From NCBI RefSeq assembly GCF_054482525.1, contig NZ_CM137006.1: a stretch of DNA of 64,000 nucleotides; one strand, 5' to 3'. Positions 38,855 through 52,077 of this stretch are shown here, piece after piece (the first letter of the stretch is position 1; every line of letters begins with the position of its first letter). The notes below the pieces were generated by a model. It was not told the DNA's origin and ran no database searches. It saw nothing but the letters and a program-made list of their open reading frames with translations. The translations under genes and the position numbers were made by a program.

Positions 38855-38907
38855 ACACTTTATCACTGATAAACATAATATGTCCACCAACTTATCAGTG
38901 ATAAAGA
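38855..38907. promoter_or_regulatory. tet operator palindromes in the tetR-tetA divergent promoter region
   Basis: actttatcactgataaaca and aacttatcagtgataaaga palindromes between the divergent genes. Confidence 0.7.
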
Positions 38908-38954
38908 ATCCGCGCGTTCAATCGGACCAGCGGAGGCTGGTCCGGAGGCCAGAC

Positions 38955-40154
38955 GTGAAACCCAACAGACCCCTGATCGTAATTCTGAGCACTGTCGCGC
39001 TCGACGCTGTCGGCATCGGCCTGATTATGCCGGTGCTGCCGGGCCTCCTGCGCGATCTGGTTCACTCGAACGACGTCACCGCCCACTATGGCATTCTGCT
39101 GGCGCTGTATGCGTTGATGCAATTTGCCTGCGCACCTGTGCTGGGCGCGCTGTCGGATCGTTTCGGGCGGCGGCCGGTCTTGCTCGTCTCGCTGGCCGGC
39201 GCTGCTGTCGACTACGCCATCATGGCGACGACGCCTTTCCTTTGGGTTCTCTATATCGGGCGGATCGTGGCCGGCATCACCGGGGCGACTGGGGCGGTAG
39301 CCGGCGCTTATATTGCCGATATCACTGATGGCGATGAGCGCGCGCGGCACTTCGGCTTCATGAGCGCCTGTTTCGGGTTCGGGATGGTCGCGGGACCTGT
39401 GCTCGGTGGGCTGATGGGCGGTTTCTCCCCCCACGCTCCGTTCTTCGCCGCGGCAGCCTTGAACGGCCTCAATTTCCTGACGGGCTGTTTCCTTTTGCCG
39501 GAGTCGCACAAAGGCGAACGCCGGCCGTTACGCCGGGAGGCTCTCAACCCGCTCGCTTCGTTCCGGTGGGCCCGGGGCATGACCGTCGTCGCCGCCCTGA
39601 TGGCGGTCTTCTTCATCATGCAACTTGTCGGACAGGTGCCGGCCGCGCTTTGGGTCATTTTCGGCGAGGATCGCTTTCACTGGGACGCGACCACGATCGG
39701 CATTTCGCTTGCCGCATTTGGCATTCTGCATTCACTCGCCCAGGCAATGATCACCGGCCCTGTAGCCGCCCGGCTCGGCGAAAGGCGGGCACTCATGCTC
39801 GGAATGATTGCCGACGGCACAGGCTACATCCTGCTTGCCTTCGCGACACGGGGATGGATGGCGTTCCCGATCATGGTCCTGCTTGCTTCGGGTGGCATCG
39901 GAATGCCGGCGCTGCAAGCAATGTTGTCCAGGCAGGTGGATGAGGAACGTCAGGGGCAGCTGCAAGGCTCACTGGCGGCGCTCACCAGCCTGACCTCGAT
40001 CGTCGGACCCCTCCTCTTCACGGCGATCTATGCGGCTTCTATAACAACGTGGAACGGGTGGGCATGGATTGCAGGCGCTGCCCTCTACTTGCTCTGCCTG
40101 CCGGCGCTGCGTCGCGGGCTTTGGAGAAATTCTTCAAATTCCCGTTGCACATAG
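38955..40154 (+). CDS. tetA: tetracycline efflux MFS transporter TetA, class A (GTG start)
   Basis: VKPNRPLIVILSTVALDAVGIGLIMPVLPGLL...; GGAGG 6 nt upstream of GTG at 38955; C-terminal tail may differ from the Tn1721 form. Confidence 0.85.
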   Translation: MKPNRPLIVILSTVALDAVGIGLIMPVLPGLLRDLVHSNDVTAHYGILLALYALMQFACAPVLGALSDRFGRRPVLLVSLAGAAVDYAIMATTPFLWVLYIGRIVAGITGATGAVAGAYIADITDGDERARHFGFMSACFGFGMVAGPVLGGLMGGFSPHAPFFAAAALNGLNFLTGCFLLPESHKGERRPLRREALNPLASFRWARGMTVVAALMAVFFIMQLVGQVPAALWVIFGEDRFHWDATTIGISLAAFGILHSLAQAMITGPVAARLGERRALMLGMIADGTGYILLAFATRGWMAFPIMVLLASGGIGMPALQAMLSRQVDEERQGQLQGSLAALTSLTSIVGPLLFTAIYAASITTWNGWAWIAGAALYLLCLPALRRGLWRNSSNSRCT

Positions 40155-40420
40155 CCCGGCAATTCCTTTCCCTGCTCTGCCATAAGCGCAGCGAATGCCG
40201 GGTAATACTCGTCAACGATCTGATAGAGAAGGGTTTGCTCGGGTCGGTGGCTCTGGTAACGACCAGTATCCCGATCCCGGCTGGCCGTCCTGGCCGCCAC
40301 ATGAGGCATGTTCCGCGTCCTTGCAATACTGTGTTTACATACAGTCTATCGCTTAGCGGAAAGTTCTTTTACCCTCAGCCGAAATGCCTGCCGTTGCTAG
40401 ACATTGCCAGCCAGTGCCCG

Positions 40421-40726
40421 TCACTCCGCGGTCTTCACTGCGTGATCGAGTTGATCGACACCCGCCGTGACACGCTCCATGAAGTGCCTGCCTGCGTCTG
40501 TTAGCCGAACGCCCCGCGCATGGCGCTCAAATAGCAGGACACCAAGGTTATCCTCCAGCGCTTTCACACGCGCGCTGACGCTCGACTGGCTGATACCAAG
40601 TGCCTTGGCCGCATGCCGAAAATTCAGATGCTCGGCGACGGCGATGAACTGAACAAGGGAAATGAGCGGTATCCTGCCAGACAGGATACCGACATTCACG
40701 AGGTTTCGATGGTTAGTGCGCCGCAT
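40421..40726 (-). pseudogene. truncated LysR-family regulator gene associated with floR
   Basis: 101-aa ORF with LysR-type HTH (HLNFRHAAKALGISQSSVSARVKALE) but lacking the effector domain. Confidence 0.7.
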
Positions 40727-40753
40727 CGGAGCGGGCCTGCTACCAGTCGTCGG

Positions 40754-41968
40754 TTAGACGACTGGCGACTTCTCGGTGGCAGCCCCACGGAGCCGAAGGA
40801 GCACCAGCCCCAACGAAACCAGTACCGCCATCGCCGTGGCGTAACAGATCACGGGCCACGCTGTGTCACCGTTTAAAAGTGCCACCGCCAATGTCCCGAC
40901 AATGCTGACTATCAGGCTTTGAACGCAGAAGTAGAACGCGACCGCTGATCCCGCGATGTCGTCGAACTCTGCCAAAGCGCCGTTCGCGGTAACGGACACC
41001 GTGAAGACAATACCGACCGCGACAACCCACATCGGTAGGATGAAGGTGAGGAATGACGGCGAGCCGTAAAGTTCGCCGATCCCCAACAGGACCGCTCCGC
41101 AAACAAGCAACGCCATCCCACGCGCCACGCATCCTGCGATGCCCCATCTGGCGACAAAGGACTTCGCGAAACGGGTTGTCACGATCATTACAAGCGCGAC
41201 AGTGGCGAAGGCAAAGCTGAATCCGATCTCGGAATATTCCGCTTGGCCTATGAGCACACGGGGAGCCGTCGAGAAGAAGACGAAGTAGGTGCCCATACCG
41301 GCGCTAAAGCCGACAGTGTAAACCCAAAAAGCCGGACTCGCGAAGATCGGCAAGACAGATCGGCGCGTCTTGACTTGATCCAGAGGGCGGGTTTCGTGCC
41401 ACCTGAAACCCGCATTTAGGAGTGCGAGCATCGCCAGTATAGCCAAAGTAATGAATATCGCCTGCCATCCCAAGAACTCGCCGATCAATGTTCCGGCGAT
41501 AGGGCCGAGCGCAGGCACGAACGCCAGCATCGAACTGAAAAGGCCGTAGATGACGACACCCTCAGGACGGTTGGCATAAACGTCGCGAACCGTCGCGAAC
41601 GTCGCCACCAGCATGGCCGACGCGCCCACTGCTTGAAGTAGACGGAAAGCGACAAAGGCCGGTGCAGTTGAAGACCAAGCTGCTCCCAGAGACGCAATGA
41701 CGAAAGCCGTTGCGCCCGCAAGTAGAATTGGCCGTCGCCCGATTCTGTCTGAGAGCGGACCAAAAATCACCTGGCCCACGCCGAGCATCACCATATAGAG
41801 GCTCAACGTGAGTTGGATCATAGCGGGCGTCGTGTTCAGGATGCCGGGCATCGCTGGAACGACAGGGAGATAAATATCCATCGCCAGTGAAGCGAGGATG
41901 TCGAAAGGAGCCATCAGCAGCAGTGCTGCCGGCAGCGTATAGGCCCACGCGGGGCGTGTGGTGGTCAT
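40754..41968 (-). CDS. floR: florfenicol/chloramphenicol efflux MFS transporter FloR
   Basis: 404-aa product matches FloR as recalled. Confidence 0.95.
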   Translation of the reverse strand: MTTTRPAWAYTLPAALLLMAPFDILASLAMDIYLPVVPAMPGILNTTPAMIQLTLSLYMVMLGVGQVIFGPLSDRIGRRPILLAGATAFVIASLGAAWSSTAPAFVAFRLLQAVGASAMLVATFATVRDVYANRPEGVVIYGLFSSMLAFVPALGPIAGTLIGEFLGWQAIFITLAILAMLALLNAGFRWHETRPLDQVKTRRSVLPIFASPAFWVYTVGFSAGMGTYFVFFSTAPRVLIGQAEYSEIGFSFAFATVALVMIVTTRFAKSFVARWGIAGCVARGMALLVCGAVLLGIGELYGSPSFLTFILPMWVVAVGIVFTVSVTANGALAEFDDIAGSAVAFYFCVQSLIVSIVGTLAVALLNGDTAWPVICYATAMAVLVSLGLVLLRLRGAATEKSPVV

Positions 41969-42184
41969 GACGAATCAACCCTCGATTAAGGAATACCGGG
42001 CGACGTCTGCTCGTCAGCAATCAGATGAGACTAGCCTTACAGAGCGCCGCAACAACAATACTGGTTGTTGCGGCTTACTTGTCTGCTGACTTGGAATTTC
42101 CCATCTGATTACTCCACGCTTACGAATATGAATTGCTACATTTTATCCGATTATCTTTTGCTTCGCAATGCGGCATGGGCGCAC

Positions 42185-43069
42185 TCAGCGTTCCAGCCCC
42201 CTCTGCCGCCCTAACTGCCACGACACCGACCCGCCCTGCACGATGCCCATAACCTCGCGGCCGAGTTGGCGGTCGATGATCGGCCGCCACGGGACAAGGG
42301 TGAACTCATGGGATTTCTCGACCACGGCGAACTTGCCGCTCGATAGATGCACGGTTCCGGTAAACTTGCCGCTGACGCTCTCGCCGTCCGTGGCGGCGCG
42401 GAACGGCAGGCCCTTACTCAAAGCCATATCCGATCCGACGCCGGCTACCTCGCGCTCCCGCAGGATGGCGAGAAGGTTGCGCCGGTAGAAGACGCGGCTG
42501 TCCCGGCTGCGGGTGGCGTCGCCCTGTTCGATATGGTGCTCGCGGCGCTGGTCCATGGCTTCGCGGACTTGTTGCCCGAAGCCGGTTGGCGCAAGGTCGG
42601 CCGTCTCGCCGTGGATCAGCCGCCGGTCCAGCCAGGTCGCGCCGTCCGATCCGATCTGTTTGTTCAGATCGACCGGGGAAAGGACGCGAACGCTGGCCTG
42701 ACTGTCTCGGCCGGCGTCATGGGCGGCGGCACGGCTGACCAGATCATTGGGGATGCGCCATTGGTCGGCGTCGATCCGCTCGACGATACCGGCCCGGCGT
42801 AGCGCCTCCAGCCGGCGCACATGGGCATCGACATAGCCCTCATAGTCGCCGCCTGGAACGCGGCACGTATAGGAAGAATAAACGCCCTTTTCACCCAAGT
42901 CCAACAGCTTTGGACCGCAGTTGACTCTTTCGACACCCCTGCGATGCAACCCAATCCGGCTGACGGGGAGCCAGCAACGCTGAAAATTTACCCTCCTCTT
43001 TCCCACTAGCGGCTCCTTTTCCGACAACCAGCACGGCGGATCCCTGCCGCGGCGCTGTGAACGCAGCAT
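42185..43069 (-). CDS. floR-associated hypothetical protein (often annotated VirD2-like)
   Basis: 294-aa GC-rich ORF between floR and the ISCR2 fragment, the position this gene occupies in floR cassettes. Confidence 0.55.
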   Translation of the reverse strand: MLRSQRRGRDPPCWLSEKEPLVGKRRVNFQRCWLPVSRIGLHRRGVERVNCGPKLLDLGEKGVYSSYTCRVPGGDYEGYVDAHVRRLEALRRAGIVERIDADQWRIPNDLVSRAAAHDAGRDSQASVRVLSPVDLNKQIGSDGATWLDRRLIHGETADLAPTGFGQQVREAMDQRREHHIEQGDATRSRDSRVFYRRNLLAILREREVAGVGSDMALSKGLPFRAATDGESVSGKFTGTVHLSSGKFAVVEKSHEFTLVPWRPIIDRQLGREVMGIVQGGSVSWQLGRQRGLER

Positions 43070-43099
43070 TTTGATTGGTATCGTTGGCCTTCAGGCTCG

Positions 43100-43753
43100 T
43101 CAGTCAAACAGACCCAGGAGCAGCTCAGCCGGTGGCGCCCGGCTTTCGGGTAACGCCCTGGTCCCGCTGGTTTCGGCTTTGTGCTTCAGGTGATCAAGGA
43201 TCTGCTTGATCACTATAGGGTCTTCAATGCAGGCGATGACTTTCATGGCGCCGCCGCAGCCGCTGCAGGTCTCGATGTCGATATTGAAAACACGCTTGAG
43301 CCGTTGCGCCCATGTCATCGACGCTCGCCGTTGTGCTGGTGTTGCCGGTTCATCAGCCACCCTGACCTTGTTGCCCCTGCCCCGTTTTGCCGGCGTGACC
43401 AACGCCCGGTGCCGACTGTTGGGTGCGAACACCCCGTGGAAGCGGGTTAGGTTGACTCTGGGCTTCGGTACCAGGGCGGCCAGCCTTGCAATGAAATCCA
43501 ATGGTTCGAAAATGACGTGCGTGGTGCCGTCCCGGTACGGCGTCTTGAGCTGGTAGCGCACGTTGCCGCCTCGTGTTAACGACAGCCGCTTCTCGGATAC
43601 CGCCGGGCGGCTGATGTACCGGCACAGCCGTTCGAGCTTCTTGCGTTCATCGGCCCTGGCCGCCACGCCGGCGTGCAGGCTGGACCCGGCTACCTTGCCA
43701 ATCCCGTCACCGAACGGATCACCACTGGTCGGCAGAGTTTGCAAAGTGAACAA
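43100..43753 (-). mobile_element. truncated ISCR2 (IS91-family rolling-circle transposase), C-terminal part only
   Basis: 217-aa ORF resembling the ISCR2 C-terminal half; N-terminal half absent, sequence changes to papI at ~43740. Confidence 0.65.
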
Positions 43754-43968
43754 CTCTGCCCCGCCTGCTTCTCTCCTTTCAGAAGCCAGTATGTTGCCAT
43801 GCCCCGTCTTAATGGTGAGCGCTGAACCATACCTGCTTTTTCCAGTAATAACAGGTAATAGCGGGCCTGGTAATCCGTTACCGCCAGCGCCTCCGCAATT
43901 TCTGCCGTTTTCCCTCCATCATGCCTGTTCAGAAATTCCAGTATTTCATTCTTCATATATTCACTCAT
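43738..43968 (-). CDS. papI: fimbrial regulatory protein PapI (3' end abuts the ISCR2 fragment)
   Basis: [61 protein letters not shown] matches PapI; ORF tail beyond ~77 codons is junction-derived. Confidence 0.8.
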
Positions 43969-44911: not shown

Positions 44912-45180
44912 ATGATTAAGTCGGTTATTGCCGGTGCGGTAGCTATGGCAGTGGTGTCTTTTGGTGTAAATGCTGCTCCAACTATTCCACAGGGGCAGGG
45001 TAAAGTAACTTTTAACGGAACTGTTGTTGATGCTCCATGCAGCATTTCTCAGAAATCAGCTGATCAGTCTATTGATTTTGGACAGCTTTCAAAAAGCTTC
45101 CTTGAGGCAGGAGGTACATCCAAGCCAATGGATTTAGATATTGAGTTAGTAAATTGCGATATTACAGCTTTTAAACAAGG
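44912..45180 (+). pseudogene. papA: major pilin papA, 5' fragment only
   Basis: MIKSVIAGAVAMAVVSFGVNAAPTIPQGQGKVTFNGTVVDAPCSIS... pilin N-terminus; pilin-like sequence ends at ~45177, where a perfect palindrome starts. Confidence 0.7.
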
Positions 45181-45189
45181 TCAAGCACT

Positions 45190-45235
45190 GATGAATCCCC
45201 TAATGATTTTTATCAAAATCATTAGGGGATTCATC
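45190..45235. repeat. perfect 21-bp inverted repeat (hairpin) at the papA truncation junction
   Basis: gatgaatcccctaatgatttt / tatc / aaaatcattaggggattcatc; no flanking T-run. Confidence 0.7.
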
Positions 45236-45583
45236 AGGACTCAGTATAAATCCAAGACAAAATCCCCCCGTGAATGCATTTAATAAAGACTTTAATGTTC
45301 TGTTAAAGGTGCGGATATAAAATGCATAAATAAAAGAAAGAGATCCGGTGATTATACCGGTGCAAAAATATGTTGTCCATTCAGGTACCGTATTTTGTAA
45401 AACAGTATAATGAGATATAGCGGATGCCCACAACATATACCAGCACAAACCACCTGTAATAAGATATGTTATTGCTGTGGAAAACCATTTCCTGTATTTA
45501 TTTTCAGGGTAATTGTTCTTGCCCATCAACGCATTTCCAGAATATTTAAAATAACCTGTCACCGAAACGGAATAAAGGCGCAA
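45200..45583 (-). CDS. hypothetical small membrane protein (127 aa)
   Basis: Hydrophobic segments (LITGGLCWYMLWASAI; GIITGSLSFIYAFYI; GGFCLGFIL); 42 bp downstream of the dGTPase gene on the same strand. Confidence 0.4.
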   Translation of the reverse strand: MRLYSVSVTGYFKYSGNALMGKNNYPENKYRKWFSTAITYLITGGLCWYMLWASAISHYTVLQNTVPEWTTYFCTGIITGSLSFIYAFYIRTFNRTLKSLLNAFTGGFCLGFILSPDESPNDFDKNH

Positions 45584-45625
45584 TAACCATAACGGGAAAA
45601 TATGCGCCTCTGGTAATCGGCAGTG

Positions 45626-46858
45626 TTACTTCAGACAGTGAGTTTCCCATTCCTTGACTGCAAATGTATCCATCATACCTGAAATATAGTCAACCACTGC
45701 TCGTTTTTTGCTGATTTCAAATATACAGGAATCTGGTTGGGGTAAGGTGAATTTAAGTTCAGGAGGCAGAAATTTATAATTCTCTCCTTCATTGTAAAAG
45801 TCATATAAATCCCTGATTATTTTATTTCCCCTGAACTCATAGGTGAGGATATTACGTTTTCGCATGATGACTTTAAAGAGAAGTTTTTTGAGTCCTTCGG
45901 ATAACGCATTCAGTTTCCCGAACCCCAGTTCCTGAAAACCATTCAGGTTCGTTACTACAGAAATATCTGCAACGAGGCGATTGACAATATTTGAAGTTAA
46001 CTCCTTGCGGAATATGATGGCAAATTCTTCTGAGGTTTTCAGTAAGTTAGCCTGAAAAGCGGTGTTTCTCGACTGAGTAACGATTTCCCTGAACTGTTCC
46101 CTCGCTCCCCGGAATTCGTCAGAAATCTGAAACTCATATTCAATATCTTCAATCGTGACCATGTTCCTGCTAAGGGCATCTTCCAGGTCATGCGCGGCGT
46201 AGGCAATCTCATCCGCGAGATCCATTATCTGCGCATCAATCGTTTTCTCTCCGGGATTCAGATCGAGCTGATTTTCAGCAAGCAGGTTAATGTAAAAATA
46301 GTAATCATCATCATAAATGAACTTGCCGGCAGTAGCTGCAGCGCGGGGGATGGGATACTTAACAACCGAAAGTAAACTACGGTGAGTCAGATTTAATCCG
46401 TTGCAGTATGAAAATTTCTTCTCCAGTTTTCTCAGGATACGTAGCGCCTGTGCATTACCTTCATAGCCGCCGATTTCTTCAGACAGTTCATTAAGCAGTT
46501 TTTCACCGGAATGACCGAAAGGAGGATTTCCGATGTCATGCGCCAGCGCTGCCAGTTCAACCACCACCGGGTTAATCAGTTTGAGGTCTGACGCGATACT
46601 TCGGGCGATCTGAGCAACCTCAAGACTGTGCGTTAATCTGTTTCTGTTGAATTTTTCAGGATCAATTTCAAAAAGTTGCATCTTTCCCTGCAGCCTGCGA
46701 AATGATGATGAATACAGAATACGCGCGTAATCCCGTTGATAATTATCCCGGCTTCTTGTTTCACCATCGGGGGACGGGTGCTCTCTGGTATCAGCAAGCG
46801 CACTGATAAGTTTTTGTTCCTGCTCTTGCGCAAATTCTTTTAATTCATTGCAGTACAT
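45626..46858 (-). CDS. HD-domain dGTPase-like deoxynucleoside triphosphate triphosphohydrolase
   Basis: Motifs YQRDYARILYSSSFRRLQGKMQLF, RLTHSLEVAQIARSIA, LAHDIGNPPFGHSGE typical of Dgt-family enzymes; start at second Met (RBS-like AAGGAAG upstream); AT-rich. Confidence 0.75.
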   Translation of the reverse strand: MYCNELKEFAQEQEQKLISALADTREHPSPDGETRSRDNYQRDYARILYSSSFRRLQGKMQLFEIDPEKFNRNRLTHSLEVAQIARSIASDLKLINPVVVELAALAHDIGNPPFGHSGEKLLNELSEEIGGYEGNAQALRILRKLEKKFSYCNGLNLTHRSLLSVVKYPIPRAAATAGKFIYDDDYYFYINLLAENQLDLNPGEKTIDAQIMDLADEIAYAAHDLEDALSRNMVTIEDIEYEFQISDEFRGAREQFREIVTQSRNTAFQANLLKTSEEFAIIFRKELTSNIVNRLVADISVVTNLNGFQELGFGKLNALSEGLKKLLFKVIMRKRNILTYEFRGNKIIRDLYDFYNEGENYKFLPPELKFTLPQPDSCIFEISKKRAVVDYISGMMDTFAVKEWETHCLK

Positions 46859-47008
46859 ATTTCTTCCTTTCTGGAGCATGTTACCAAATCAGAATACCGG
46901 ATGAACAAAACTGGTGGCTACATCCTGTAGGGATTATGTATTAGTAAGCTCTGGCCATTAGTGCCATTTCAGGTTATGTGATCCTACCCACGTAATATGG
47001 ACACAGGC

Positions 47009-47875
47009 CTAAGCGAGGTTCTTGTTTTCAAATTGTTCCGGACTGAGGCCGCCACACCAACTGTGCCGCCGCCACCGATTGTAATCACATTCGATATAAT
47101 TAAACACCGTTGCCCGCATTATTTCCCGGCTGATAAAGTGTTCTCCATGGATACATTCCACTTTCAGCGAATGAAAGAAGCTTTCCACGCAGGCATTATC
47201 GTAGCAGCAACCTTTTGCGCTCATACTTCCACGCAGATTATGCCGCTTCAGTTGCGCCTGATAATCTGCTGAACAGTACTGGCCTCCACGGTCCGTGTGA
47301 ACGATAACGTTCCGGGGCCTCTTACGCCGCCACAGCGCCATCTGCAGGGCATCGCAGGCCAGTTGCGCCGTCATGCGTGGCGACATTGACCAGCCAATAA
47401 CGGCACGTGACCACAGGTCAATGACCACTGCCAGATACAGCCAGCCTTCATCTGTACGTAAGTACGTGATGTCTCCTGCCCACTTCTGGTTCGGGCCACT
47501 GGCGTAAAAATCCTGCTCCAACAGATTTTCTGACACAGGCAGGCCGTGTGCGCGGTAGCTGACCGGGCTGAACTTCCGGGAGGCCTTTGCCCTCAGTCCC
47601 TGACGGCGCAGGCTTGCCGCCACGGTTTTTACGTTAAAGGGGTAACCCTGAGCACGCAGTTCATCCGTCAGGCGTGGGGCACCGTAACGCTGTTTTGACC
47701 GGGTAAAAGCCGCGAGGACAACGCTGTCGCAGTGTTGGCGGAACTGCTGACGCGTGCTTATCCTTGTCCGCCGCTGACACCACGTATACCAGCCGCTGCG
47801 GGCCACCCGGAGCACGCGGCACATTGCTTTGATGCTGAACTCAGCCTGATGTTTTTCAATAAAGACATACTTCAT
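47009..47875 (-). CDS. insF: IS3 transposase OrfB
   Basis: 288-aa product matches IS3 OrfB as recalled. Confidence 0.9.
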
Positions 47876-48170
47876 TTCAGACGATTCGCAAAGTATGTCG
47901 CGGCCTTTTGGAGGATAGCCAGTTCCTCTGCCTGCTCCGCCAGTTGCCGCTTCAGGCAGGCATTTTCAGCGGCCAGTTCACTTTCACGCTCTGACGAACT
48001 CATTTGTTGCTGCAGTTTGCTGCGCCACGCATAGAGCTGTGATTCATACAGGCTGAGTTCACGGGCTGCGGCAGCAACACCGATGCGTTCAGCAAGTTTC
48101 AGGGCTTCACTGAGAAATTCAGGCGAATGCTGTTTACGGGGTTTTTACTGGTTGATACTGTTTTTGTCAT
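47871..48170 (-). pseudogene. insE: IS3 orfA with a 1-bp deletion in a poly-A run near codon 9
   Basis: Translation from ATG at 48170 gives MTKTVSTSKNPVNSIRLNFSVKP*; element is 1257 rather than 1258 bp; no minus-strand ORF >=60 aa in the track here. Confidence 0.6.
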
Positions 48171-48337: not shown

Positions 48338-49318
48338 ATGACTCTTTTGGTAACGGCTGAGTGTGTTGACGATCTGATAAACGATGTTCATCAAGCTATC
48401 CTAGCGGATGGACTCAGTAACGATCCTACAAAAGGATCAACTCTAGAGATTCTTGGTGCCTATCTTGTCCTTACCGACCCCCGCCGAAGAATAAGTAGAA
48501 CAGAATCCCGAGGAAAACTAATTAGTTGCTTAGGTGAATTTCTGTGGTATCTCTCAGCTCAGAACGATCTTGAGTTTATAAAACACTTCATACCACGTTA
48601 CGCTGAATCCGCTGAGTCAGATGGGAAAATACATGGTGGTTACGGGCCACGGTTGTTTAATATGCGTGGTTTATATAATCAGCTAAAAAATGTTATCAAC
48701 CTTTTGCAGGAGAAAAAACCTACCAGACGTGCAGTAATACAGCTTTTCGATGCCTCAGACTTGGTGCCCTCAAAAACTGAACAGCGAGAATACGTAGATA
48801 TTCCTTGTACAATATCTATGCAGTTTATTGTCAGATGTGAAGAGCTGCATCTATTTGTTTGTATGCGTTCTAACGATGCCTTTATGGGGCTGCCTCATGA
48901 TGTATTTGCGTTCACGATGCTACAGGAATTAGTTGCCCGCTTGATAGGATGCGAATTGGGTCACTATCATCACTTTGTATCCAGCCTACATCTCTATAAA
49001 AATGATTTAGAAAAAGTGAAGGCTCTTCAGAAAGAGGGGTTCATGAGCACCCTACCAGTCATGGGATCGATGCCTGAAATGCATTCCTTAGATGATATCT
49101 TACCCCTGCTTGAGGCAGAAAAAGCTCTTCGAGAGAATAAGGAATTTGATATTGACACTACTTCCTTGAATGACTACTGGAAGGATTTATTGCGTATATT
49201 AAAAATCCACTTTTTGTTACGTTCACATACACCCAACCACAAAGGACTAGCCTTCCAAGAGTTGGCTGCAATGAAAAATCAGGAATATCGGTTTATTTTT
49301 GAAGGAAGACTACAATGA
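48338..49318 (+). CDS. thymidylate synthase-fold protein (ThyA / dNMP hydroxymethylase family) with ~90-aa C-terminal extension
   Basis: Aligns by eye to ThyA: GSTLEILGAYLVL, ISCLGEFLWYL, LYNQLKNVINLLQEKKPTRRAVIQLFDASDL, DIPCTISMQFIV (Cys at catalytic position), CMRSNDAFMGLPHDVFAF, HLYKNDL. Confidence 0.7.
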   Translation: MTLLVTAECVDDLINDVHQAILADGLSNDPTKGSTLEILGAYLVLTDPRRRISRTESRGKLISCLGEFLWYLSAQNDLEFIKHFIPRYAESAESDGKIHGGYGPRLFNMRGLYNQLKNVINLLQEKKPTRRAVIQLFDASDLVPSKTEQREYVDIPCTISMQFIVRCEELHLFVCMRSNDAFMGLPHDVFAFTMLQELVARLIGCELGHYHHFVSSLHLYKNDLEKVKALQKEGFMSTLPVMGSMPEMHSLDDILPLLEAEKALRENKEFDIDTTSLNDYWKDLLRILKIHFLLRSHTPNHKGLAFQELAAMKNQEYRFIFEGRLQ

Positions 49319-50259
49319 AAAGACATAATCAAATCAGTCAGCTGGTTAGTAATTTGCAAAATTTTAGCCGCAATGAACACAACCTAAATGGCCTAAGTTC
49401 TCCTGCCTGCTTTGATGTTTTAGCCTGTCAGATTATCGACAGTATACGTCGTATACGCTATGTGGAAACTCTTGCATTACGGACCGATTATATGACTCCG
49501 TTACGAAAAGAGCCGAATTCTGATGTTTTTGATCCTCTCCGCGCTGCCTGCCTTTATCTTCGTGACAACAATTACGATGAAGCCTGCTGGCTGGTTTTCC
49601 TTGCCACACATTTCGGCAAGAGTAACAAAACCGGCTGGATTTTGTGTCGAGATATATACAGTGGACTCGGTACACAAACGTGGACATGGGATACGATAAC
49701 TGATGACTTTGCTGCTTTTGAACAATGGTTCGCCAGCGTCTCTGATGAGTTGACAGCTAACAGTAGCCTAAGACAATATGGTAACCATCGGAAATATGAA
49801 ACGAAGAAATATCACTCTCGTCGTTCAATACCTGCGGTTTTTCGCTCTTACATCGGATTCATTGGTGCTACACACAGTCATGAGGCTAGGTTTGCAGAGG
49901 CCAAGAGCTTTTCATCTTCACCAGAATCTTTATTCGAACTATTGTATTCAGGGCTAAATGCCGTGATCTCATTTGGACGAACCGCAAAATTTGATTACCT
50001 AACTATGCTCAAGAAAACGGGACTTCTGGATGTAGAGCCGGGTCATGCTTTTCTGAATGGAGCAACCGGGCCCCTTCAAGGAAGCCGGCTACTTTTCAGC
50101 AATAGCCGGACTGCTGGTGACACAATAGACGTATTGAATGAAAAACTAGCTGACCTTGCGGCAATTATTCCTGCACCCTACTTGAGAATGCAGGTTATTG
50201 AAGATGCGTTGTGCAACTGGCAGAAATCACCTGACCGTTATGTCTATTTCGGCGGCTGA
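49315..50259 (+). CDS. uncharacterised protein co-operonic with the TS-fold gene
   Basis: 314-aa ORF overlapping upstream gene by 4 bp (ATGA); no motif I can assign. Confidence 0.5.
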   Translation: MKRHNQISQLVSNLQNFSRNEHNLNGLSSPACFDVLACQIIDSIRRIRYVETLALRTDYMTPLRKEPNSDVFDPLRAACLYLRDNNYDEACWLVFLATHFGKSNKTGWILCRDIYSGLGTQTWTWDTITDDFAAFEQWFASVSDELTANSSLRQYGNHRKYETKKYHSRRSIPAVFRSYIGFIGATHSHEARFAEAKSFSSSPESLFELLYSGLNAVISFGRTAKFDYLTMLKKTGLLDVEPGHAFLNGATGPLQGSRLLFSNSRTAGDTIDVLNEKLADLAAIIPAPYLRMQVIEDALCNWQKSPDRYVYFGG

Positions 50260-50261
50260 TA

Positions 50262-51344
50262 TCAGACGATATCTTCTTTACGGAATCTCACTTTAAACCG
50301 ATTAAGGTGAGAAAAAGGTATATTACCTTCATGCTGCAAATATCCCAGTACGATCCCTTTGGATACCCCCATTTTCCTAGCTAACCGGATGATCTCTTTC
50401 CAATGCCGGACACCATAGCGACTAAGTTGCTGCCGGTATTCTTCTGGGATAAGAACATCAACGGCAAATTTATCTGCTTCCTTTTCCTCTTCCGACGAAA
50501 GACTATCTTTACCTTCTACGCGAACTCGGACAGCTTCATGCAAGATGAGATGCCCAATCTCATGAAACAGCGTAAACCAAAAATGGTCATCGGTCAGATA
50601 ACGGAAACTCATGACTAGGGTTGCGCGATCTGGTGTAAAAAAGCAGGTAGCACCACTTGCCCGACATCCCTTTGGCGTTGGCAACACAACGAGAGAAACT
50701 CCAGCAGTGGCGAGAAGGTCGCGAATGTAAGGGATAAAAATCCTCATGTCGGGTTCATTTGTAGCTTTGCGCAGTTCTGGCAACAATGCTATCAGCCCCT
50801 CTTTATCCCATACAGCACAGTTTTGGTTTGAGGTAAGTTGTGCAGCCCTAGTCAGCCACACCAAATCGGCCATAGGCTCGGTTGCCAGATTAAGAGATTT
50901 ACGAAAAGCGACCAAAGGAGCATCTGACTGAATTTTATAAAAAAAATCATTGACGGAATTTATTCCGAAAAACGATAGGCAGTGCTGGAATTTACTTTCC
51001 CGAGTTGTAGTTTTGGGGATCCAACCAAACTCCATCATATCACGTACAGGCAATGATTCGAGCCAATCATTATTCACTTTCTCGAGGTATCCAATTTGCT
51101 GGCGATAAGCGACTTCGCGCTTGATCCAGAAGTCTGTCGATACGTTGAATAACTCCTCAAGCTTACAAGCCAGAGACTCATTGAGTCGGATTTTTCCTTC
51201 AAGAAGTTGCTGACCCCGGATAAGAGACAATCCAATCCTCTTACTCAGTTCTTCACCAGAAAGCCCATGTTCATCCATTAGATCTATAATTGTATCACCG
51301 GGTGGAGATACCCAGTCAGGCTGGAAGTCCTGCGTAACTATCAT
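50262..51344 (-). CDS. XRE-family HTH fused to ImmA/IrrE-type zinc metallopeptidase (HigA-like antitoxin/regulator)
   Basis: N-terminal HTH (IIDLMDEHGLSGEELSKRIGLSLIRGQQLLEG), C-terminal HEXXH (FTLFHEIGHLILHE); overlaps upstream small gene by 4 bp. Confidence 0.65.
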   Translation of the reverse strand: MIVTQDFQPDWVSPPGDTIIDLMDEHGLSGEELSKRIGLSLIRGQQLLEGKIRLNESLACKLEELFNVSTDFWIKREVAYRQQIGYLEKVNNDWLESLPVRDMMEFGWIPKTTTRESKFQHCLSFFGINSVNDFFYKIQSDAPLVAFRKSLNLATEPMADLVWLTRAAQLTSNQNCAVWDKEGLIALLPELRKATNEPDMRIFIPYIRDLLATAGVSLVVLPTPKGCRASGATCFFTPDRATLVMSFRYLTDDHFWFTLFHEIGHLILHEAVRVRVEGKDSLSSEEEKEADKFAVDVLIPEEYRQQLSRYGVRHWKEIIRLARKMGVSKGIVLGYLQHEGNIPFSHLNRFKVRFRKEDIV

Positions 51345-51667
51345 TTCACGTCACCTATGAACACTAACCGTATCCGGCTAACTCGGGACCAGTTAATTGT
51401 ATTATCTTGATTTTTGGGCTGAACTGTATTCCCACAGACAAATCCCATTTTTACATCACCGAGAATGGTAATTGTAATACACTCTTCCCCATCCTCAAAG
51501 CAGACCTCCGGCGAACCTACGGGCAACAGTAATATGTTGTCTGTCACGGAAAGATCGGAAAGTCGCGAGCGTAGTCTTGATGCCACTTTGTCACCAAAGA
51601 TCTCATTTGCCTCATGCATACTCTCGCAAATAGTCCTTAACTTCTTGCTTTGAAAGGTAATGAACAA
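51341..51667 (-). CDS. HigB-like (killer-protein family) type II toxin candidate
   Basis: 108 aa; N-terminal KKLRTICESMHEANEIFGDKVASRLRSRLSDL resembles HigB-family pattern; toxin-first gene order. Confidence 0.5.
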   Translation of the reverse strand: MFITFQSKKLRTICESMHEANEIFGDKVASRLRSRLSDLSVTDNILLLPVGSPEVCFEDGEECITITILGDVKMGFVCGNTVQPKNQDNTINWSRVSRIRLVFIGDVK

Positions 51668-51810
51668 AATTATCCACTTTTATTTTTCTTGGTTGCTACG
51701 TTTATAGCAAACTCAACGCTCATTCACAAAATGAGATGTAGCGAATTAATGGACTCTGCACATATTAAATGTTAATGATGGACTTAAAATCACGGATTCG
51801 TAAGGGAAAC

Positions 51811-52077
51811 ATGAAAGGTAAACATCAAGACACTAAAGCCCTGTCTGACGTGCTAGCGGAAATGCAACGGCAGGATGCCAAATGGGGGGCAGACCGTAAT
51901 CAAGATCCTTTTATCTGGGGAGCGATTCTCGGAGAAGAGGTGGGAGAATTTCATCAGGCTGTCCTCCATGATCGTTTTGGTGGTAAAGCAGCCGGTACCA
52001 GTAGGGAGGAAGCAGTACAAATTGCTGCTGTTGCACTGCAAATCATCGAATATTATGATCGCGTAATAGATCGATAA
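51811..52077 (+). CDS. small MazG-like NTP pyrophosphohydrolase-like protein (tentative)
   Basis: AILGEEVGEFHQAV and REEAVQIAAVALQIIEYY resemble the MazG EExGE helix pair; start at internal Met of ORF 51769..52077. Confidence 0.35.
   Translation: MKGKHQDTKALSDVLAEMQRQDAKWGADRNQDPFIWGAILGEEVGEFHQAVLHDRFGGKAAGTSREEAVQIAAVALQIIEYYDRVIDR

Follow-up and report, generated by a model that had tools for sequence, protein, structure and literature searches.

Organization of the locus

We analyzed a 64,000-nucleotide stretch of contig NZ_CM137006.1 (NCBI RefSeq assembly GCF_054482525.1), here called the window, in which an intact dGTP/dNTP triphosphohydrolase gene (hereafter dGTPase) is followed on the same strand by a small open reading frame (ORF) and, beyond it, by a short palindrome and the 5' fragment of a papA-type fimbrial gene (Table 1). 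Although the ORF list gives a longer reading of the dGTPase, PGAP annotation of identical records, together with homologues, places its start at the downstream of the two ATG codons. The first-pass annotation of this DNA had recognized a dGTPase-like ORF with HD-domain motifs, and profile searches bear this out, with 316 bits against TIGR01353 (cut-off 152) and 365 bits against the PADLOC dGTPase model PDLC02374 (E 1.5e-109, residues 21–413). The HD motifs are intact, comprising an RLTHSLEVAQ stretch and HD pairs at residues 107 and 223, as are the metal-binding H...HD...D residues of the HD core. The domain content is HD plus HD_assoc, and homologues are 408–410 aa proteins with PF01966 and PF13286.

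Table 1. Features of the dGTPase locus in window coordinates
Feature	Position	Strand	Details
papA-type major fimbrial subunit gene, 5' fragment	44912..45187	+	Truncated by the IS10 scar
50-bp palindrome, two IS10 outside ends	45188..45237	.	CTGATGAATCCCCTAATGATTTT, 4 nt, reverse complement of CTGATGAATCCCCTAATGATTTT
Small ORF, 127 aa	45200..45583	-	TTG start at 45583, 42 nt from the dGTPase ORF
5' remnant of membrane-protein gene, codons 1–96 of 189	45239..45526	-	Codon mapping; alignment to P0001 and P0003
Spacer, dGTPase stop to conserved ATG	45527..45625	-	99 nt; holds a 9-bp GC-rich hairpin and the TTG of the small ORF
dGTP/dNTP triphosphohydrolase gene, intact	45626..46858	-	410 aa; identical to WP_000271619.1; start ATG at 46858
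Longer ORF reading of the dGTPase	45626..46879	-	417 aa, from upstream ATG at 46879 (ORF list)
IS3-family element, frameshifted transposase	47009..48170	-	ORF list; PGAP annotation of matching loci L002 and L029

The IS3-family element lies directly upstream of the dGTPase and parts it from a ThyA-like/aGPT-Pplase3 pair. The island around the dGTPase also carries a type I restriction-modification system, an XRE/ImmA gene, an AAA ATPase and an integrase remnant, and the same Escherichia coli island holds a MazG-like gene and ThyA-like/aGPT-Pplase genes. A resistance module (sul2, strAB, tetA, floR and ISCR2) is inserted in the island.

The small ORF ends in an IS10 scar

The inverted 23-mers of the palindrome are exact, with 0 expected by chance, and CTGATGAATCCCCTAATGATTTT agrees with the IS10-Right outside-end sequence given in PMC2705183. 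A 56-nt stretch at the palindrome was found again in ~700 plasmids. PGAP describes the papA-type fragment on its far side as 'incomplete; missing C-terminus', and the fragment's fimbrial-subunit NCBIfam matches cover approximately the first half of the models only, the Pap matches ending at query position 475. The palindrome is the scar of a transposon, and the two DNAs that meet at it are unrelated. Excision or rearrangement of Tn10 leaves short IS10/Tn10-end scars, which the palindrome resembles in having two outside ends back to back with no element in between; unlike those scars, however, it is flanked by unrelated genes, and the 9-mers that border it (GGTCAAGCA vs GACTCAGTA) are unlike each other and form no target duplication. 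Since GGTCAAGCA and GACTCAGTA differ, the palindrome does not mark a simple insertion and excision. Because the 9-mers are no target duplication and the flanks are unrelated, we infer that two IS10 insertions must also have recombined or lost the DNA between them by deletion.

The small ORF is a composite of three parts. Its residues 1–19 are a TTG extension upstream of a conserved ATG (MGKNNY...), residues 20–115 match residues 1–96 of a 189-aa protein (P0001; WP_000517677.1, E. coli cq9), and residues 116–127 and the stop codon are encoded by the IS10-end palindrome. An uninterrupted copy of the 189-aa gene is present in a matching locus (L002, 11720–12289), and in E. coli cq9 the dGTPase and the intact 189-aa gene occupy NZ_CP031546.1 4291464–4293365. 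What the remnant in the window still specifies is TM1, TM2 and the greater part of TM3; the conserved C-terminal beta domain is missing. PGAP called no gene at the ORF, and scans of its translation with Pfam, NCBIfam, PADLOC and PHROG returned no significant family. No native gene product corresponds to the 127-aa ORF, which is a dead chimera. The first-pass annotation had seen a 127-aa protein with three hydrophobic segments 42 bp downstream of the dGTPase on the same strand; the ORF, its strand and its coordinates hold good, as do the hydrophobic segments, but the third segment is clipped, the C-terminal domain is gone, the product is not native and the true spacing, from the dGTPase stop to the conserved ATG, is 99 nt and not 42.

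The intact 189-aa protein family

The one domain that is well conserved in the 189-aa family, the C-terminal beta domain, is not in what is left in the window. Invariant residues in the family alignment (P125, C133, C151 and G178) all fall past residue 96, and the AF2 model of the intact protein (pLDDT 92.7) has three TM helices and a beta domain. Scans of the 189-aa protein and 23 family members with Pfam, NCBIfam, PADLOC and PHROG gave no significant family, a fold search with the 189-aa protein gave no informative match, and we found no conserved neighbor gene beyond an enrichment near CdiA and T6SS toxin genes. DUF6678 was considered as a conserved upstream neighbor and rejected: it sits directly upstream in a single Pantoea locus, present in the genome contig L003 and in the short read-assembly contig L004, and in one Enterobacter locus it lies 4.7 kb from the family gene. 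No relatives of the family turned up in 2.9 million viral contigs, which speaks against a superinfection-exclusion gene of prophages.

The toxin-locus association makes it possible, if still doubtful, that the intact protein is an orphan immunity-type protein against CDI or T6SS toxins acting in the periplasm or inner membrane, in which three TM helices would anchor a disulfide-bonded periplasmic beta domain. Of 26 family loci, 5 (L017, L019, L020, L021 and L026) have a PT-VENN/filamentous-haemagglutinin (CdiA) gene no more than 5 kb away, these neighbors being identified by Pfam, with no match in NCBIfam scans of the toxin-like neighbors; L017 and L020, however, are one orthologous locus. The placement directly downstream of a toxin C-terminal domain is true or nearly true in two loci: in L020, from Pantoea, the family gene begins 46 nt after a CdiA C-terminal ORF, and in L026, from Klebsiella sp. 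BIGb0407, a family gene fragment follows cdiA and a small ORF. A further locus (L022) has a VgrG-like neighbor. The two invariant cysteines and the charge distribution, which would put the C-terminal domain outside the cytoplasm, are consistent with an immunity protein, as are the lack of any other conserved neighbor and the absence from viral contigs. On the other side, approximately three quarters of the family loci have no toxin gene nearby, the E. coli island has none, and neither the family models nor the fold search provided a match in favor of such a role.

It is very improbable that the intact protein is a membrane-disrupting abortive-infection effector akin to the 'S-2TM-beta' effectors of CBASS. 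One AFDB50 match (A0AAU6U6D7; 34% identity, E 9.5e-16) carries the name 'SMODS-associating 2TM beta-strand rich effector domain-containing protein', and the overall modeled layout, in which a beta-rich domain comes after the TM helices, is similar. However, 0 of 23 family members match Pfam S_2TMBeta, even at E <= 0.1, the family has no convincing PADLOC match, its TM helices number three rather than the two of S-2TM-beta, and a cyclase or other sensor gene was not found as a conserved neighbor.

Conservation of the gene pair

The first-pass annotation had proposed that the membrane protein could serve the dGTPase as an accessory or regulator, or else be an unrelated gene, and had held that absence of the downstream gene from homologous dGTPase loci would count against the partnership. 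Absence is what we found: with tblastn and 23 family members as queries, the 189-aa family was near dGTPase homologues (63%–82% identity) in 0 of 10 distinct contexts (18 loci), and conversely a dGTPase was near the 189-aa family in 0 of 26 loci in other genera, within flanks of mostly 5 kb. By the annotation's own reasoning, therefore, the proposed partnership falls, and its alternative of an unrelated gene is the one favored by the evidence of the chimera and of co-occurrence.

In intact E. coli islands the pair is always together: among 343 E. coli carriers of the dGTPase, 205 genomes have an intact 3' part and 128 the IS10 junction, and where the 189-aa gene is intact (~205 genomes) both genes are co-oriented and 99 nt apart. 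A consensus scan of this spacer in the intact locus L002 found neither a terminator nor a promoter, and RNA folding gave the 99-nt spacer no significant stability (z = -1.6). The intact pair may thus be co-transcribed in these ~205 genomes, hence some functional link may exist there. Nonetheless, on at least two independent occasions the 189-aa gene has been lost from beside a dGTPase that stayed intact. Besides the IS10 junction, an IS3-family remnant cuts it after residue 75 in another locus, again with an intact dGTPase (P0002, L044), and frameshifted variants were also found (P0004 and P0005). The IS10-truncated variant probably reflects one recent event that spread clonally with the resistance module, and retention of the dGTPase after that single event is therefore weak evidence of independence.

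Validated anti-phage dGTPases are sufficient as single genes (Tal et al., bioRxiv 10.1101/2021.04.26.441389), as the first-pass annotation had correctly stated. Clover, as outlined in PMC12265719, is a two-gene dNTPase defense in which the dNTPase CloA is accompanied by the nucleotidyltransferase CloB, so that dNTPases can have regulatory partners. The window dGTPase shares with Clover an HD-type dNTPase (CloA structures 9p8s–9p8v), but CloA is only distantly related to it (85–92 bits), and the neighbor here is a membrane protein rather than a nucleotidyltransferase and does not co-occur with the dGTPase. Shared strand, short distance, constant company in E. coli and the lack of a detected terminator are thus set against a copy in the window that retains 96 of 189 codons, is missing the conserved domain and closes within IS10 sequence, against zero co-occurrence in both directions outside the one E. 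coli island, and against a dGTPase that outlasts its neighbor; we consider an accessory or regulatory role in a two-gene defense system very unlikely. Equally slight is the chance that, in the ~205 genomes where it is intact, the 189-aa protein is co-transcribed with the dGTPase and ties dNTP depletion to a signal from the envelope, for instance phage adsorption or injection; were this true, the pair would be a two-gene form of the dGTPase system particular to this lineage, and the window would hold a decayed copy.

A probable stand-alone dGTPase of a known defense type

Identity with the housekeeping dgt, the name that one plasmid record in PLSDB gives to the dGTPase, is effectively ruled out by a score of 156 bits on PRK04926 (the E. 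coli Dgt equivalog model), for which the cut-off is 405, by length (410 aa vs ~505 aa for Dgt) and by presence in no more than 343 of the 5,426 complete E. coli genomes (6%), all in a chromosomal island context; the housekeeping identity that the first-pass annotation had named as a refutation thus does not apply to this accessory gene. Both enzymes belong to the HD-domain dNTP triphosphohydrolase superfamily; however, their alignment is limited to the N-terminal HD core (81 bits to PDB 4x9e), and Dgt is a core gene whereas the dGTPase here is an island gene.

The closer relatives are the anti-phage dGTPases, such as the Shewanella putrefaciens CN-32 enzyme Sp-dGTPase (IMG 2524134135) and the E. 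coli G177 enzyme Ec-dGTPase, with which the window protein shares the HD and HD_assoc domains and the H...HD...D residues. The THSLEVAQ motif is conserved among the window protein, the Sp, Ec and Ms dGTPases and the solved structure 9vwa. Identity to the Sp, Ec and Ms proteins is 45%–49% over the N-terminal core only, the published Ec G177 and Sp comparison sequences being the first ~400 nt of each gene; over the first 133 aa of Sp-dGTPase it is 48.7% in 115 aligned columns, and full-length identity is probably lower. The set for which Tal et al. reported defense-island enrichment shares 45% identity or more with Sp-dGTPase across 90% or more of the length. The window protein and its close homologues are shorter than the validated enzymes (408–410 vs 450–463 aa), and the window protein does not pass the NCBIfam antiphage_dGTPase models (NF041026 / NF003701; 284 bits vs a cut-off of 400, and 252 vs 383). 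Judging from sequence, the ~408-aa dGTPases are a clade sister to the validated one and distinct from it. The top solved structure is 9vwa (387 bits, full length), which with 9vwc and 9vwg is named 'Deoxyguanosinetriphosphate triphosphohydrolase-like protein' (402 aa); it has the same length class and motifs but is a different protein, with approximately half of its residues identical. A literature search for these three PDB entries found no describing paper, only chance string matches.

As with the PADLOC/DefenseFinder 'dGTPase' system, the gene combines a strong model match and single-gene organization with a distribution in defense islands and at prophage ends. Homologues lie at prophage ends by an integrase in Proteus, E. 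coli and Stx2c phages, an Edwardsiella homologue lies in a phage-gene region (RecT, Exonuc_VIII and S24 repressor), and others adjoin NACHT, SIR2_2 and Lamassu LmuB (LmuB_C) genes. The window dGTPase and its homologues are located in defense islands and mobile elements. Together, the HMM match and this genomic context point to a putative anti-phage role for the ~408-aa clade, and the gene itself is RefSeq-annotated, PADLOC-callable and of an already known single-gene defense type.

Interpretation of the locus

We consider it highly likely that the locus consists of two unrelated neighbors, namely an intact, stand-alone accessory dGTPase and a dead, IS10-made chimera of the 189-aa gene. By analogy with validated anti-phage dGTPases, the enzyme would act alone, hydrolyzing dGTP and possibly other dNTPs on infection to deoxynucleoside and triphosphate, and so would starve phage DNA synthesis. 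An IS10-mediated rearrangement would have brought the papA fragment up against codons 1–96 of the membrane-protein gene, with the leftover scar closing the reading frame and the conserved C-terminal beta domain being lost. Among the loci compared, the 189-aa gene has a dGTPase for a neighbor in this E. coli island alone, most likely as independent cargo and not as a dGTPase component.

The pairing as proposed has little discovery value, comprising a known kind of defense gene with a pseudogene fragment as its supposed partner, and ORFs closing within a transposon scar are not to be taken for proteins. Members of the ~408-aa dGTPase clade are frequent at the ends of prophages and in the defense islands of Enterobacterales. 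The membrane proteins of the 189-aa type form a small, unnamed family with a confident structural model and a link to CDI/T6SS toxin loci, and they might represent a new family of immunity proteins.

The dGTPase and its relation to anti-phage enzymes

The first-pass annotation had identified the larger of two adjacent reading frames as a dGTPase, and this was borne out: the product scores 316 bits against TIGR01353 (dGTP triphosphohydrolase; cut-off 152) and 365 bits against the PADLOC 'dGTPase' defence model (E 1.5e-109), and its catalytic motifs, including the HD pairs at positions 107 and 223, are unbroken. PGAP starts the gene at the second ATG (46858), giving a 410-aa protein identical to WP_000271619.1, and homologues of 408-410 aa share PF01966 (HD) and PF13286 (HD_assoc). 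Among solved structures 9vwa/9vwc (402 aa) comes nearest, aligning at 387 bits over the full length; a literature search on it found no descriptive paper. Housekeeping dgt can be dismissed, since the protein reaches only 156 of the 405 bits that the E. coli Dgt model requires, aligns with Dgt structures by its N-terminal core only, and is encoded by a segment detected in 343 of 5,426 complete E. coli genomes, every time chromosomal and in an island.

Six dGTPases have been cloned as single genes, four of which protected E. coli, and the validated anti-phage enzymes are 450-463 aa long (Tal et al., bioRxiv 10.1101/2021.04.26.441389). Over the first ~133 residues (the N-terminal core), the window protein shares 45-49% identity with the validated dGTPases of Ec G177, Sp CN-32 and Mesorhizobium, and its 284 bits against NCBIfam antiphage_dGTPase fall below the curated cut-off of 400. 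It therefore belongs to a sister clade whose members are shorter. An anti-phage role is inferred from its HMM match and genomic setting, and the contexts of homologues are consistent with this. Among homologues sharing 63-82% identity, those of Proteus and E. coli occupy prophage ends, next to integrases, and the Edwardsiella one sits among phage genes that include RecT, Exonuc_VIII and an S24 repressor. A 64% homologue is found 2-3 kb from the genome end of Stx2c phages. Others adjoin a NACHT protein in Klebsiella, a SIR2_2 protein in Pantoea, a Lamassu LmuB_C gene in Xenorhabdus, or T5orf172/SNIPE or HNH genes.

Genomic island surrounding the dGTPase

The 44-46 kb interval of the window is AT-rich (GC 0.37), with a GC-rich resistance module on one side and an IS3-family element on the other. 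On an identical record, PGAP annotates island genes as YfjI, inovirus-Gp2-type, AlpA-type, a type I R-M system, an AAA ATPase and an integrase remnant, and the resistance module as sul2, aph(3'')-Ib, aph(6)-Id, tet(A), floR and ISCR2.

Features of the window at and around the dGTPase gene
Feature	Position	Strand	Remarks
tet(A), IS91-family remnant, LysR fragment, floR, DUF3363 gene, truncated ISCR2	about 38880-43760		resistance module
Palindrome (IS10 scar)	45188-45237		50 bp
Small ORF	45200-45583	minus	127 codons, TTG start; 42 nt downstream of dGTPase ORF
dGTPase ORF	45626-46879	minus	417 codons; ORF listing
Thymidylate-synthase-like gene and 314-aa gene	48338-50259	plus	4-nt overlap
XRE-HTH + ImmA/IrrE-type metallopeptidase gene, with 108-aa ORF	50262-51667	minus	360 aa
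Small MazG-like protein	51769-52077	plus	phrog_24212 E 3.8e-37; PGAP 'MazG-like family protein'

The thymidylate-synthase-like protein (326 aa) matches PHROG thymidylate synthase (E 1.6e-43) and falls under every NCBIfam ThyA cut-off, and its 314-aa partner hits Pfam aGPT-Pplase3 at E 5.5e-90 and ADDT amino acid:DNA transferase at E 1e-58. Such enzymes carry out thymidine hypermodification in phages; the present pair is in a defence island on an E. coli chromosome. The MazG-like gene, less than 7 kb from the dGTPase and thymidylate-synthase-like genes, brings the nucleotide-pool genes there to three. DefensePredictor lists aGPT-Pplase and MazG as predicted, unvalidated defence domains, and a validated system containing thymidylate synthase is reported there (PMC13092281). 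The XRE/ImmA protein matches PADLOC PD-Lambda-2_B at 102 bits and, weakly, RmrA, CapP and Lit; the unannotated 108-aa ORF overlapping the start of its gene by 4 nt had no match in database searches and is a candidate toxin or partner gene of a PD-Lambda-2-like module.

The downstream reading frame is a chimera

The 127-aa membrane protein reported 3' of the dGTPase does exist as an ORF so placed on the same strand, but it is a chimera that reads into an IS10 scar. A search of 5.8 billion proteins returned only four relatives, the best being a 189-aa protein (734 member sequences; 96% identical over 76% of the query) and the next full-length one a 190-aa Pantoea protein. In E. coli cq9 the corresponding intact 570-nt gene (WP_000517677.1, 'hypothetical protein') is located 99 nt 3' of an identical dGTPase. 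Codon-by-codon mapping assigns residues 1-19 of the ORF to an upstream extension preceding the conserved ATG (MGKNNY...) and residues 20-115 to native residues 1-96; the remaining residues, 116-127 (PDESPNDFDKNH), and the stop codon come from the palindrome, which consists of CTGATGAATCCCCTAATGATTTT, 4 nt and the exact reverse complement, an arrangement not expected by chance. Each arm has the sequence of the IS10-Right outside end (PMC2705183).

On its opposite side, the palindrome cuts a papA-type fimbrial gene (PGAP 'papA, incomplete, missing C-terminus'). The 9-mers on its two sides differ, and the scar therefore joins two unrelated DNAs, which would imply an IS10-mediated deletion or recombination rather than simple insertion and excision. 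On records identical to the window, PGAP leaves the interval from papA' to the dGTPase without a gene. The 127-aa ORF is thus a mechanical ORF spanning a transposon scar, and the window copy of the 189-aa gene is best read as a pseudogene remnant.

The resistance module abuts papI/papB/papA', and papA' abuts the scar. Relative to cq9, module and pap fragment stand where the 3' half of the 189-aa gene, followed by H-NS-like and ProQ-like genes, had been; the DNA replaced may extend beyond the span compared.

The intact 189-aa family

A HMMER scan of 1.84 billion cluster representatives gave only 46 relatives of the 189-aa protein; none was found in 2.9 million viral contigs, and Pfam, NCBIfam, PADLOC and PHROG scans of the family gave no match. 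Among 23 full-length members, the N-terminal hydrophobic segments are weakly conserved and a C-terminal domain of ~85 residues is well conserved (...PGP-S-GK-G-CEAGL-IKD...LC...GM-VWVT...G-YI-Y-F), with P125, C133, C151 and G178 invariant, all past residue 96. The AlphaFold2 model from this alignment (mean pLDDT 92.7) shows three long helices plus a beta domain of seven strands, of which the window remnant retains the helices only, the third one clipped. A basic N-terminus, a basic TM2-TM3 loop and the pair of invariant cysteines point to a C-terminal domain that is periplasmic and disulfide-bonded. One AFDB match is named 'SMODS-associating 2TM beta-strand rich effector', but no family member matched the corresponding Pfam model.

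Toxin genes are the sole contextual signal for the family. CdiA-type genes (Fil_haemagg_2 + PT-VENN) lie within 5 kb in 5 of 26 family loci (L017, L019, L020, L021 and L026): in Pantoea sp. Eser the family gene begins 46 nt past the CdiA C-terminal ORF, and in Klebsiella sp. BIGb0407 the order is cdiA, a small ORF, then a fragment of the family gene. A Hafnia locus (L022) has a VgrG-like gene nearby. This suggests membership of orphan immunity arrays; an immunity-type role is our best guess, a tentative one, and is irrelevant to the dGTPase. A 104-aa DUF6678 gene is directly upstream of the member in Pantoea sp. AS-PWVM4 (L003 7620-7934), and another is 4.7 kb away in Enterobacter asburiae (L014 9605-9916); DUF6678 is not conserved in the remaining loci and was rejected as a conserved neighbour.

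The gene pair is not conserved

A pattern-based scan across GTDB, with a single genome for each species, yielded 24 family loci (Serratia, Rahnella, Pantoea, Lelliottia, Enterobacter, Leclercia, Xenorhabdus, Pseudomonas, Sodalis, Hafnia, Aeromonas, Dickeya, Klebsiella, Erwinia and others), which, with a Pantoea locus seen on two contigs, made 26. By tblastn none had a dGTPase nearby (flanks mostly 5 kb), and no other conserved neighbour was found among the loci examined. Conversely, 23 family members used as tblastn queries (E <= 0.01) found no relative in any of ten distinct contexts (18 loci) of dGTPase homologues 63-82% identical, including the closest non-E. coli relatives.

Within E. coli, the intact 3' part of the 189-aa gene occurs in about 205 genomes and the exact papA'-scar junction in 128; this truncated form probably arose once, not long ago, and travelled with the resistance module. 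A second, independent cut (P0002, locus L044) falls after residue 75 through an IS3-family remnant, the adjoining dGTPase being intact, and two further variants (P0004, P0005) are frameshifted. The downstream gene is thus missing from the homologous dGTPase loci examined, the outcome that the first-pass annotation had named as refuting its proposal.

L044 (E. coli, GCA_037967615.1 contig, 1-2949) represents another island allele, with a 97.6% identical dGTPase, the neighbour gene remnant fused to an IS3-family rve remnant, and a ShlB/TpsB-type transporter gene directly upstream on the opposite strand. The dGTPase has also hitch-hiked with the resistance region onto pNDM5_LS003, a conjugative IncI-gamma/K1 blaNDM-5 plasmid that alone among 72,556 plasmids carries the block (NZ_OP290546.1, 12486-17132; floR, DUF3363, papI, papB, papA', IS10 scar, truncated gene and dGTPase; 98.8% identical).

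In the intact island the two genes are co-oriented across a 99-nt spacer, in which a scan detected no consensus terminator or promoter and a 9-bp hairpin was statistically unremarkable in a fold test; co-transcription in the single E. coli lineage with this island is conceivable. A real functional partnership is nevertheless highly improbable. The membrane accessory or regulatory partner proposed earlier is unsupported, the pairing being absent elsewhere and the window copy a broken remnant; the alternative offered alongside it, an unrelated gene, is right. The locus comprises a known kind of single-gene defence enzyme, recognized here by HMM match and context, together with a pseudogene fragment.
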